Origin: a virus
Lineage: Duplodnaviria; Heunggongvirae; Uroviricota; Caudoviricetes
IMG/VR virus record: IMGVR_UViG_2875697941_000001
Strand: one strand, 5' to 3'
DNA: 64,000 nt
This document shows, in pieces, positions 57,415-62,679 of this stretch. The notes beneath the pieces were generated by a model that was not told the DNA's origin, ran no database searches, and worked only from the letters and a program-made list of their open reading frames with translations. Both the position numbers and the translations under genes were made by a program. The stretch's first letter is position 1. Each line of letters begins with the position of its first letter.

Positions 57415-57630
57415 TTAAGCGGCTTTGTGCTCCGGCGGGAACACGTCATCAAGACTTACTTTTGCGCCTAACTTGTTTAGACACGCAACAAGAGCACGGC
57501 ATGTTTTAAGGTCTGGGAAGCGACGACCAGATTCCCAATGTCCGATAGCTCCCTGTGTGCATCCAACTGCCTTAGCAAGTGTTGTTTGAGAGATATTCAG
57601 TGACTCTCGATATTTTCGTAGGTTGCTCAT
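57415..57630 (-). CDS. cro: Cro-like HTH repressor
   Basis: 72 aa from MSNLRKYRESLNISQTTLAKAVGC; GGAGGG RBS; divergent from cI. Confidence 0.7.
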   Translation of the reverse strand: MSNLRKYRESLNISQTTLAKAVGCTQGAIGHWESGRRFPDLKTCRALVACLNKLGAKVSLDDVFPPEHKAA

Positions 57631-57639
57631 ATGCCCTCC

Positions 57640-57744
57640 ATAGTAACCATGAAGAAAAAAATACAATATGTACTTTTTTAATGCAAGCAAAAATACACAT
57701 TGTGCATGGATGGTTGCAATACAGAGCGTAATAATAAGGACATG
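57640..57744. promoter_or_regulatory. OR region: candidate operators and divergent pR/pRM
   Basis: Near-palindromic TACAATATGTA (57662-57672) and TACACATTGTG between cro and cI. Confidence 0.45.
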
Positions 57745-58401
57745 AAAATGAAATGGTATGAACTGGCTAGATCCAGAATGAAAGAGCTCGGCATAACTCA
57801 AGAGAAGTTAGCCGAAGAGCTAGGTATGACGCAGGGTGGAATTGGACACTGGTTGCGCGGATCTCGTCATCCATCTCTTAGTGATATTGGTGTGGTGTTT
57901 AAATACCTTGGTATTGATAACATATCATTCAACCACGACGGGACATTTTCACCTGTTGGCGAATACTCATCGGCCCCAGTTAAAAAACAATATGAGTACC
58001 CTGTTTTTTCTCATGTTCAGGCTGGGATGTTCTCTCCAGAACTCAGAACCTTTACCAAAGGCGATGCGGAGAGATTGGTAAGCACAACCAAAAAAGCCAG
58101 TGACTCTGCATTCTGGCTTGAGGTTGAAGGTAACTCGATGACCGCCCCAACAGGTTCCAAACCTAGTTTTCCTGACGGGATGTTAATTCTGGTTGACCCT
58201 GAGCAGGCTGTTGAGCCAGGTGATTTCTGCATAGCCAGACTTGGTGGTGATGAGTTTACCTTCAAGAAACTGATCAGGGATAGCGGTCAGGTGTTTCTAC
58301 AGCCACTAAACCCGCAATATCCAATGATCCCATGCAATGAGAGTTGTTCCGTTGTGGGGAAAGTTATCGCCAGCCAGTGGCCAGAAGAGACGTTTGGGTA
58401 A
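57745..58401 (+). CDS. cI: CI-type prophage repressor (HTH plus S24 LexA-like peptidase)
   Basis: 218 aa; N-terminal HTH ([20 protein letters not shown]); C-terminal Ser/Lys dyad context (GNSM, FKKL). Confidence 0.8.
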
Positions 58402-58573
58402 TTTCTCTGTTTGTTTTTTAAGCTATCAATCTCTGGCTTGTGGATAAGTTGGAAGGTATTCGCTGCTAATGTATTGACATTTACAAAATATAGGTATTTT
58501 GGGGTTGTCTAAAATTACCTATAGGGTAAACTTCACTTAAGCTCCTACATGAGAGCTTCTGAGGAGAGATAAA

Positions 58574-58870
58574 ATGAAAACCTTACGTTGCATGGCCTAC
58601 CAGCAGAACGGCGTTTACGTAGCTGCATGTTTAGACCTGTCATTGGCAGCGCAAGCAGATACTATGAAAGAAGCTGTAAACAAACTGGATGAGCAGATTA
58701 AAGATTTTTTCACTGAAGCGCTATCAGAGCCGGAATATGCAAAACAACTACTAAGTCGGAAAGCACCTTTATCTATGTGGCTTAAGTATTGGGTAATTGC
58801 ATTTCAGGTTTTTGTCAGAAAACGAGGTGAAGCAAAACTCTTTGCTGAGCCTTGTGATGCTCATGCTTAG
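58574..58870 (+). CDS. HicB-like (UPF0150-like) putative antitoxin
   Basis: 98 aa; N-terminus YQQNGVYVAACLDLSLAAQADTMKEAVNKLDEQIKDFF resembles HicB N-domain; no obvious DNA-binding domain. Confidence 0.45.
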   Translation: MKTLRCMAYQQNGVYVAACLDLSLAAQADTMKEAVNKLDEQIKDFFTEALSEPEYAKQLLSRKAPLSMWLKYWVIAFQVFVRKRGEAKLFAEPCDAHA

Positions 58871-58881
58871 GGTTACATTAC

Positions 58882-59166
58882 ATGTTCTTGAAAAAGCTTA
58901 CTCCTTTGAAATACGACGAGGTAATCAGGGGACTTAAGAAAATGGGGTTTGAAATGAAACCTAAAACAGGAACCTCTCACGAACAGTGGGTTCTCAAGAA
59001 CAGTAAAGGAAAATGGGTGGTTACAGTTGATAAGCATCACGCCCCATTCTCCAGAGATTTAATAAAATCCATGGCTAAGCAAGCTGGACTGAAAGCTCGT
59101 CACTTTCATGCGTTATGCAGAGGTGACGCAACGCTTGAGGATATAGGATTCCAAATCATTAGCTAA
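58882..59166 (+). CDS. HicA/YcfA-like putative mRNA-interferase toxin
   Basis: 94 aa; GTSH ... VTVDKHHAPFSRDLIKSMAKQAGL fits the HicA pattern; 11 nt after the HicB-like gene. Confidence 0.55.
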   Translation: MFLKKLTPLKYDEVIRGLKKMGFEMKPKTGTSHEQWVLKNSKGKWVVTVDKHHAPFSRDLIKSMAKQAGLKARHFHALCRGDATLEDIGFQIIS

Positions 59167-59195
59167 AACCCGGCCTCAGCGCCGGGTTTTCTTTG
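59165..59195 (+). terminator. rho-independent terminator
   Basis: Hairpin CCCGGCCTCAGCGCCGGG followed by TTTTCTTT immediately after the hicA-like stop. Confidence 0.6.
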
Positions 59196-59379
59196 CCTCA
59201 CGCCCCCACCTAAAGACACATAACCAAATGTATTTATTGAAAAATAAATAGATACAACTCACTAAACCACGCAATTCTGATCTCTCCTTACATCGCCGAG
59301 GCAATACACCCACGCTAAAAAACAACACTATTAAATACAAAGTGTTATAAAAAATCACCCCATTTTAGAACAAATCGTA

Positions 59380-59408
59380 TTGACCAAATAAAGTACATAT
59401 CGTACTAT
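59380..59408 (+). promoter_or_regulatory. candidate pL promoter with overlapping operator
   Basis: TTGACC-N17-TACTAT; spacer contains TACATATCGTA, reverse-complement match (10/11) to the OR site. Confidence 0.4.
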
Positions 59409-59454
59409 TTAACCGTCAGCAGGACGCTGGAAGCCAAACGGAACAGACTGGCAG

Positions 59455-59482
59455 GCTCTTTAAACAACGTCGAACTCTCGAC
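59455..59482 (+). promoter_or_regulatory. candidate nutL (boxA-like plus boxB-like hairpin)
   Basis: GCTCTTTAAACAA followed by hairpin GTCGAACTCTCGAC, upstream of the N-like gene. Confidence 0.35.
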
Positions 59483-59598
59483 TACGTGGCTGAAAAGCCA
59501 GATCACCCAACCACATGAGCTGTGGGATGCAATGCCGAAGCAACCGTCTCAGGAGGAGCTTCGAGATTGCATCGCCAAAGTTTATTCGGGAGGAATCT

Positions 59599-59871
59599 AT
59601 GTCCAGAAAAACAGAATTTAAAGGCACCGCAGCTTCTCGCCGTAGAGCTCGTCGCGCAAATCTGCAAAGTCAGAAGGCGATCAGCTCCGACAAGCTACAC
59701 AGGCCAACCCCTTCACGAGTGGTCTTGCAATGCAAGCGCAAACCAGCAATGAGAGCAGAAGTAATAACACTGACAACGCTGACCAGAAAATATGAAGGCT
59801 CAACTTGTCTTCCAAACGTAGCTCTTTACGCGGCAGGCTACCGGAAATCCAAACAACTGACAGCAAGATGA
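59599..59871 (+). CDS. N: N-like transcription antiterminator
   Basis: ~90 aa from MSRKTEF; arginine-rich motif GTAASRRRARRANLQSQ resembles phage-21 N; C-terminus divergent. Confidence 0.5.
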   Translation: MSRKTEFKGTAASRRRARRANLQSQKAISSDKLHRPTPSRVVLQCKRKPAMRAEVITLTTLTRKYEGSTCLPNVALYAAGYRKSKQLTAR

Positions 59872-61893: not shown

Positions 61894-62679
61894 ATGAGTA
61901 CAGCACTCGCAACGCTGGCTGGGAAGCTGGCTGAACGTGTCGGCATGGATTCTGTCGACCCACAGGAACTGATCACCACTCTTCGCCAGACGGCATTTAA
62001 AGGTGATGCCAGCGATGCGCAGTTCATCGCATTGTTGATCGTCGCCAACCAGTACGGCCTTAATCCGTGGACGAAAGAAATTTACGCCTTCCCTGACAAG
62101 CAGAACGGCATCGTTCCGGTGGTGGGCGTTGATGGCTGGTCCCGTATCATCAATGAAAACCAGCAATTTGATGGCATGGACTTTGAGCAGGACAATGAAT
62201 CATGTACATGCCGGATTTACCGCAAGGACCGTAATCATCCGATCTGCGTTACCGAGTGGATGGATGAATGCCGCCGCGAACCATTCAAAACTCGCGAAGG
62301 CAGAGAAATCACGGGGCCGTGGCAGTCGCATCCCAAACGGATGTTACGGCATAAAGCTATGATTCAGTGTGCCCGTCTCGCCTTCGGATTTGCTGGTATC
62401 TATGACAAGGATGAAGCCGAGCGCATTGTCGAAAATACCGCATACACTGCAGAACGTCAGCCGGAACGCGACATCACTCCGGTTAACGATGAAACCATGC
62501 AGGAGATTAACACTCTGCTGATCGCCCTGGATAAAACATGGGATGACGACTTATTGCCGCTCTGTTCCCAGATATTTCGCCGCGACATTCGCGCATCGTC
62601 AGAACTGACACAGGCCGAAGCAGTGAAAGCTCTTGGATTCCTGAAACAGAAAGCCACTGAGCAGAAGGTGGCAGCATGA
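61894..62679 (+). CDS. bet: single-strand annealing protein Bet (Red-beta)
   Basis: 261 aa; essentially identical to recalled lambda Bet. Confidence 0.95.

Follow-up and report, generated by a model that had tools for sequence, protein, structure and literature searches.

The stretch of DNA analyzed here (64,000 nucleotides, nt; hereafter the window) holds the immunity region of a lambdoid (lambda-like) Escherichia coli prophage, reversed with respect to the usual lambda map. Between the cI-type repressor gene and a pL-like promoter lie two small open reading frames (ORFs) that probably form a toxin-antitoxin pair. ORF1 (58574–58870) is a hicB-like antitoxin gene for a protein of 98 amino acids (aa) with a single predicted HicB domain of the partial ribonuclease (RNase) H type, and ORF2 (58882–59166), 11 nt further on, is a hicA gene for a 94-aa predicted RNase toxin with a fold like that of double-stranded RNA-binding domains (dsRBDs). 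The repressor gene (57742–58401, with an alternative start at 57706 according to the Prokaryotic Genome Annotation Pipeline, PGAP) encodes a helix-turn-helix (HTH) domain (PF01381, HTH_3) and an S24 peptidase domain (PF00717, Peptidase_S24), and its DNA is 98–99.6% identical to the cI genes of Shiga toxin (Stx) phages and of phage 2B8. A spacer of 172 nt separates it from ORF1. ORF2 is followed by an intrinsic terminator (59165–59197; hairpin at 59165–59190 with a 10-bp stem, a 6-nt loop and a U-tract), the pL-like promoter (59380–59408; TTGACC-17-TACTAT) and the gene for the N antiterminator (59599–59871; PF25694, N_peptide, E = 5.5e-32). All of these elements are on the plus strand, and only a cro-like gene (57415–57630) is on the minus strand. 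The place in Stx2 phage II that is homologous to the pL-like promoter carries an annotated promoter and operators.

A first-pass annotation of the window had given the coordinates, strand and context of the two ORFs correctly and had equated their place between cI and pL with that of rexAB in lambda, which our comparison supports. It had also called the pair AT-rich; the direction is right, but the degree is only mild (GC content of 0.40–0.41 in the cassette versus 0.43–0.48 in the flanks). The strong terminator that it placed after ORF2 folds well (free energy of −16.3 kcal/mol, z = −2.7), and the equivalent hairpin is labeled as a terminator in the VT2-Sakai record (AP000422.1), although a pattern scan for terminators overlooked it.

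For ORF2, membership in the HicA family is clear. The protein scores 42.3 bits against the Pfam HicA_toxin profile (PF07927), above the curated gathering score of 27, with residues 12–70 aligned to profile positions 2–58 of 58, and it matches PHROG 353 ("toxin"); searches of NCBIfam and PADLOC gave no match. The predicted structure (30 homologs; mean predicted local distance difference test score, pLDDT, of 81) has an alpha-beta-beta-beta-alpha core and a short third helix. His33, which lies in the motif GTSHEQW after a Gly-x-x, is invariant across the 30 homologs and aligns with the histidine of the GSNH motif in HicA of E. coli K-12. We take this position to be the catalytic residue described in published HicA work. 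Cys79 is also nearly invariant in the family. ORF2 is thus a HicA-family protein with a dsRBD-like fold and a conserved histidine, and by analogy with characterized HicA-type RNases it would be expected to be toxic and to cleave mRNA. The HicA-like protein with a C-terminal extension of about 30 aa that had been proposed from the sequence therefore stands as a HicA, but the extension shrinks to about 14 aa. Helix 72–80 belongs to the HicA fold, because it aligns to the end of the structure 1WHZ, and it is also present in other HicAs of the antitoxin-first Class 2 discussed below. Residues 81–94 are the sole extra part; they are disordered (pLDDT of about 50), variable, and missing in more distant relatives.

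ORF1 is predicted to consist of the N-domain fold of HicB and nothing else. The model (32 sequences; pLDDT of 79.8, predicted template modeling score of 0.66) contains one domain, with three strands, a long helix, two shorter helices and a final strand, which corresponds to the partial RNase-H-like beta-beta-beta-alpha-beta fold of the HicB N-domain. No ribbon-helix-helix (RHH) or HTH element was found in the 98 residues, either as a second domain in the model or as a Pfam match, so the earlier description of a HicB N-domain-like protein without a DNA-binding domain is supported. The Pfam family suggested for checking that description, HicB PF15919, was not matched, and neither was the HicB-type family PF05534. 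The best Pfam score was for DUF1902 (PF08972; 16.4 bits, E = 0.01, below the 22-bit cut-off), NCBIfam and PADLOC searches gave nothing, and the one group matched was PHROG 12841, which has no annotated function. No HicB came up either when the PDB was searched by sequence, whether the query was ORF1 or a family profile of 42 members; only the fold comparison revealed one. By analogy with known HicAB complexes, ORF1 would bind and neutralize its HicA. A candidate membrane helix at residues 66–81 was rejected, since Lys71 lies within the segment, which is charged and varies among family members.

The family of ORF1 is large. A profile search against 1.84 billion representatives yielded 1465 clusters (at 50% identity) with E ≤ 1e-3 and 561 with E ≤ 1e-10. 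Nearly all members are about 95–135 aa long and match the profile end to end. Conserved features include an RC...C.DL.LAAQ motif, in which Cys6 and Cys19 are nearly invariant, and a consensus RKAP motif, in which the R..P residues (Arg62 and Pro65) are invariant. Among 42 sampled members searched against Pfam at E ≤ 0.01, DUF1902 was touched by four and PHD_like by six. This populous subfamily of small HicBs is essentially uncovered by Pfam and represents an annotation gap.

The two genes occur together over a wide range of genomes. In 33 of 39 reference-genome loci and 48 of 51 viral loci from IMG/VR, the gene immediately after an ORF1 relative is a co-oriented HicA gene, and the hosts of these paired loci include Enterobacterales, Pasteurellaceae, Neisseria, Xanthomonadales and Methylococcales. 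The same hicB-hicA arrangement is found in four deposited Pseudomonas phages. Names assigned by PGAP/RefSeq are "DUF1902 domain-containing protein" and "type II toxin-antitoxin system HicA family toxin". Between ORF1 and ORF2 and their relatives, nonsynonymous divergence (dN) is 0.08–0.30 while synonymous divergence (dS) is saturated, and dN/dS is 0.04 where computable. A dN so far below dS marks both ORFs as real genes, and these sequence comparisons show that purifying selection has kept the two together.

Annotation of such pairs is uneven. In Pseudomonas phage Medea1 (MW862109.1; locus L003, 3629–4192), a deposited 187-aa ORF on the minus strand hides plus-strand genes for a HicB-like protein (106 aa) and a HicA (80 aa), and in phage YMC11/02/R656 the hicA gene was left unannotated. 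In loci L029–L031 and L033, which derive from metagenome-assembled genomes of Methylococcales and other proteobacteria, the pair lies 22 nt downstream of a gene for a protein of about 260–310 aa with hydrophobic N-terminal segments, as judged by eye, and conserved ORFs of 364 and 609 aa lie downstream of the pair. This setting may be a defense island.

In the window, the pair forms a 765-bp cassette that replaces other cargo in otherwise near-identical immunity regions. DNA identity to Stx2 phage II and to phage 2B8 is 97–99.6% as far as the stop codon of cI (58401) and picks up again at 59167, directly after the stop codon of ORF2 (59164–59166). The cassette is therefore bounded exactly by the cI stop codon and the terminator. 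In the corresponding gap, Stx2 phage II has a 173-aa hypothetical protein without a family match (ORF c63; L004, 967–1488), phage 2B8 has an NYN-domain protein that is a putative RNase (L005, 676–1533; weak PADLOC matches to HEC-09 and NYN), and E. coli genomes with the same frame (H127–H135) have BRO-family or hypothetical genes. The immunity region at this place is a known hotspot of mosaic diversity, with cargo that includes rexAB and bstA (PMC8585504). The slot between cI, the terminator and pL is a cargo hotspot that is worth mining.

Among complete E. coli genomes, all 20 copies of the cassette are at least 99.7% identical and include those of O55:H7 and sorbitol-fermenting O157 strains; a low-stringency blastn search in E. 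coli found no diverged copies besides these. The whole cI-cro-pL frame is common to 17 of the 20. Two of the other three copies, L3Cip3 (L053) and PigCaeca_1 (L054), were examined. Both have a different Cro, a different operator region and a different repressor N-terminal domain, joined to the same repressor C-terminal domain and cassette, and their homology to the window begins at 57991, inside cI. At this junction, recombination at a domain boundary has produced a hybrid repressor. The repressor of the related IMG/VR locus L058 has an N-terminal domain that is lambda-cI-like, as judged from a reading of the sequence. In the prophage copy of O55:H7 strain CB9615 (L001), two genes downstream of N, bet and ral, carry annotations as frameshifted pseudogenes. 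Unlike in CB9615, the bet ORF of the window (61894–62679) is intact, and the CB9615 prophage copy may be defective.

The cassette is also linked to repressor genes well outside this frame. Relatives at 82–100% identity lie directly downstream of an HTH and S24 repressor gene in 18 of 18 IMG/VR loci and 4 of 4 loci from the Joint Genome Institute (JGI), and the same holds for the cassette in 20 of 20 E. coli genomes. The repressors that precede the close relatives fall into 12 clusters at 90% identity, and PF00717 is present in all ten that were tested. The pair of Pseudomonas phage Medea1 likewise stands right after a cI repressor. More distant relatives (75% identity or less) occupy other places in prophages: one setting is the tail operon of a Klebsiella siphovirus, ahead of the tape-measure gene, and others follow Bro-N-type genes or a protein judged by eye to be P2 gpD-like.

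The sequence at the left boundary occurs as a scar of transfer in other phages. The 3' end of cI in the window (58373–58401, plus strand; CAGTGGCCAGAAGAGACGTTTGGGTAA) is the place where homology to the Stx phages stops. In loci L060–L066, unrelated S24 repressor genes are followed, past their stop codons, by non-coding DNA that repeats the final ~27 nt of a window-type cI including its stop codon (CAGTGGCC..GAGACGTTTGG..). An analogous sequence (...CAGTGGCCTGAGGATATCTTTGAGTAG) precedes the hicB homolog in other loci, where it is coding in L067, L069 and L071 and non-coding in L070 and L072. Since a remnant of the donor cI 3' end stands after unrelated repressors, the cassette has moved between immunity regions and has left a recombination scar.

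The 172-nt spacer between cI and ORF1 contains no terminator, so read-through from the cI (pRM) transcript is likely. In addition, the cassette appears to have a weak conserved promoter of its own, for which the candidate is TTGTCT (−35; 58505–58510) and TAAACT (−10; 58527–58532) with a 16-nt spacer on the plus strand. TTG(N3) and TAnACT hexamers are conserved 16–18 nt apart in ten diverged 5' regions, including those of the Klebsiella tail-operon copies. A second candidate, a perfect TTGACA at 58474–58479, was set aside because it has no acceptable −10 hexamer at 16–18 nt, with TATTTT at 14–16 nt. The hexamer itself (TTGACA or TTGACT) persists in each of the three diverged upstream variants found in the repressor-linked clade while its surroundings do not, and it could act as another promoter or as a binding site. 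TTGTCT-16-TAAACT is preferred over it because the conservation of the former extends to every context. A 12-nt inverted repeat (TATAGGTATTTT / AAATTACCTATA; 58489–58523) folds stably (−15.5 kcal/mol, z = −4.0, with 0 of 200 shuffles equal). It resembled an operator or attenuator but was dropped as a functional element, since it lacks a U-tract and its left arm is not kept in the close L061-type cassette. By eye, the spacer repeats are unlike the GTAC-type operators at pR and pL.

Downstream of the candidate promoter, the leader may form a hairpin (AAGCUC-N8-GAGCUU; 58539–58558, plus strand) just 5' of the ribosome-binding site of ORF1, whose Shine-Dalgarno (SD) sequence reads GAGGAG (58561–58566, plus strand) with GGAG invariant in alignment A5. 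For this hairpin, 79.7% of alignment cells are paired, compared with 29–49% when the partner is slid, and compensatory changes occur at two of the four core pairs (CG to UA in three sequences and CG to AU in four). The covariation comes from few related lineages and provides modest evidence for the structure. RNAalifold predicts the same hairpin together with a pairing between an invariant CUUC (58531–34) and the GGAG of the SD sequence. Because this outer helix never varies, it is neither supported nor contradicted. Through such a pairing, transcripts that read through from cI and those from the cassette's own promoter may differ in translatability. A search of 58300–59500 against Rfam gave no match.

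Taken together, these patterns suggest that ORF1 and ORF2 are an antitoxin-first hicBA pair whose HicB lacks a DNA-binding domain, that the pair works by a toxin-antitoxin mechanism, and that it is exchangeable cargo in the hotspot between cI and N. We put the probability of the molecular identity and the toxin-antitoxin mechanism at about 0.8. In a lysogen, the pair would be transcribed by read-through from cI (pRM) plus its own weak promoter (TTGTCT-16-TAAACT). HicB would be translated from a strong SD sequence and HicA from a weak one, 11 nt past the hicB stop codon, which would leave the antitoxin in excess. HicB would then bind HicA 1:1 and mask its active site at and near His33, following the arrangement seen in solved HicAB complexes. 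Once production ceases, whether because an infecting phage shuts off the host or because the prophage is lost, the antitoxin would disappear, and the freed HicA would cleave mRNA independently of ribosomes and arrest growth. Two points weigh against this reading. ORF1 falls below every sequence-family threshold, so that its assignment to HicB rests on predicted structure and gene context, and the cassette's own promoter is weak by consensus (8 of 12 matches) and below the threshold of the scan tool.

For the biological role, abortive infection or exclusion is a tentative interpretation, drawn by analogy, to which we give somewhat less than an even chance. It is favored by the slot that the pair shares with rexAB and bstA in a known hotspot (PMC8585504), and a general proposal that HicA toxins act in phage defense has been put forward (PMC10865869). 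Several observations speak against a defensive role. PADLOC-DB 2.0.0 gives 0 families for both proteins, and we found no demonstrated anti-phage activity of any HicAB in the literature. HicAB2 of the Pseudomonas putida P1 prophage, a working pair, affects neither defense nor prophage stability (PMC12894663), and no target phage was found for the HicAB gp90/91 of phage Adephagia (reviewed in PMC11594946). The cassette is present in only 20 of 5426 complete E. coli genomes. Moreover, a pair tied to the repressor transcript would also fire on induction of its own prophage, a cost for which any defense model has to account. A narrower proposal, that the repressor-linked clade as a whole is an abortive-infection module expressed in lysogens and a functional counterpart of rexAB and bstA, is unlikely at present. 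Under this narrower proposal, expression would be set by co-transcription with cI, the weak promoter of the cassette, and a leader that sequesters the ribosome-binding site, and not by autorepression through the antitoxin.

Alternatively, the pair may serve prophage addiction or stabilization, such that cells cured by excision without replication can no longer replenish the labile HicB, leftover HicA halts their growth, and the prophage thereby persists in the population; defense would not be the selected function. We consider this possible, with odds well short of even. Type II toxin-antitoxin pairs carried by mobile elements classically serve in addiction, and there are precedents within the HicAB family. 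A pair on IncI2 plasmids is reported to act as an addiction module (PMC11878559), a Paracoccus prophage HicAB stabilizes plasmids, and addiction was proposed for Adephagia gp90/91 (PMC11594946). The cassette also travels with the repressor gene, in a region that every maintained lysogen must keep and express. However, the P. putida P1 HicAB2 was without effect on prophage stability (PMC12894663), the same slot elsewhere holds the proven abortive-infection systems rexAB and bstA (PMC8585504), and a tie to maintenance is less obvious for the distant relatives that lie in tail operons or beside Bro-N genes.

The remaining probability for the role goes to a selfish cassette or some other function. 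The pair could be hard to lose and recombine easily into the hotspot, or could modulate lysis or induction, in either case without protecting against other phages. The cI 3' remnants in foreign immunity regions show repeated illegitimate or homology-driven transfer, the pair's rarity in E. coli agrees with such a view, and reliance on the repressor transcript means that toxin could be freed on induction. Another toxin-antitoxin locus, hokW-sokW of the O157 prophage Sp5, is reported to aid phage release (PMC8621323). These explanations are nevertheless improbable given the strong purifying selection on both proteins over wide divergence, the large size of the family (the 561 clusters at the stricter threshold), and the conserved promoter and leader that the cassette carries. 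Finally, it is very improbable that there is no functional toxin-antitoxin pair here, with ORF1 an unrelated small protein or the pair a decayed remnant, even though ORF1 lacks a significant sequence-family match and one E. coli copy (PigCaeca_1) has a shortened hicA call of 213 nt.

If the hicBA pair does defend the lysogen, anti-phage activity would be demonstrated for a HicA-family system for the first time, and the defense proposal would gain the experimental case that it lacks. The setting is genetically easy, as the prophage is of the lambda type in E. coli and isogenic relatives exist in which this slot holds different cargo. The comparisons also provide a testable answer to the question of how a HicB without a DNA-binding domain is expressed, namely by repressor co-transcription, a constitutive promoter of its own, and a structured leader. 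Should the narrower proposal for the repressor-linked clade be true, it would answer the open question of how Class 1 and Class 2 HicAB systems without a DNA-binding domain are regulated. The donor cI 3' remnant further shows how such cassettes pass between immunity regions. If the pair does not defend, it simply adds to the list of prophage toxin-antitoxin systems, and the chief practical message becomes the Pfam annotation gap for the small-HicB subfamily.

Among known systems, lambda rexAB and BTP1 bstA share the genomic setting of the pair, being directly downstream of the repressor gene, co-oriented with it, and ending at a terminator before pL. They have no sequence or fold relationship to the hicBA pair, and searches of Pfam and PADLOC with the two ORFs returned nothing of the Rex type. 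RexAB consists of a sensor and a membrane effector, and BstA is a single DNA-binding abortive-infection protein, whereas the present pair is predicted to be an RNase toxin with a protein antitoxin. Defense has been demonstrated for rexAB and bstA and not for this hicBA pair. With canonical HicAB systems (E. coli K-12 HicAB, Yersinia pestis HicA3B3, Burkholderia pseudomallei HicAB, and Streptococcus pneumoniae HicBA), the pair shares the toxin fold, the histidine, and the antitoxin N-domain fold. Canonical systems of Classes 3 and 4 have the toxin gene first and a C-terminal RHH or HTH domain in HicB, and the present pair has neither feature. Since ORF1 lacks a DNA-binding domain, autoregulation by DNA binding is not expected.

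The only experimental precedent for neutralization by such an antitoxin is the Klebsiella pneumoniae pair 52P/31H, in which the toxicity of the HicA 31H toward E. coli was neutralized by the DUF1902 antitoxin 52P (Horesh et al., 2020; NAR 48:4357; PMC7192599). As in the present pair, a DUF1902-type antitoxin gene lies upstream of the HicA gene, and this antitoxin is also found beside a Bro-N gene, as are some relatives of ORF1. The homology is remote (hhalign assigns a probability of 84% to the antitoxin match, over 29 columns, and of 50% to the toxin match), and the 52P and 31H proteins are shorter (85 and 65 aa, respectively).

The best fit is with Class 2 hicBA (Gerdes, 2024; mBio 15:e03293-23; PMC10865869), defined by an antitoxin-first order, close linkage of the two genes, and a HicB of 63–103 codons without a DNA-binding domain. 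In that work, Classes 1 and 2 were described as the most prevalent, as being without experimental analysis, and as leaving regulation an open question, and DUF1902-type proteins were noted as probable HicBs. Because the neutralization of 31H by 52P predates that description, these classes are not wholly without experiment. The present pair agrees with Class 2 in having the antitoxin first, a HicB of 98 codons without a DNA-binding domain, a single-domain HicA, and genes that are 11 nt apart. The first-pass annotation was thus right that the gene order is reversed relative to canonical hicAB, but the order is not unusual, since it is that of a recognized class (PMC10865869). ORF1 and ORF2 are supported as a compact type II toxin-antitoxin system of this already catalogued kind, although accessions of the pair do not appear in the accessible portion of the tables of Gerdes (2024). 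The differences from Class 2 as described are that ORF1 belongs to a HicB subfamily with a two-helix insertion and the RKAP motif, which Pfam does not capture, and that the close clade is tied to prophage repressor genes. Only the mobility of the cassette, its linkage to repressors, and its conserved promoter and leader go beyond existing annotation.
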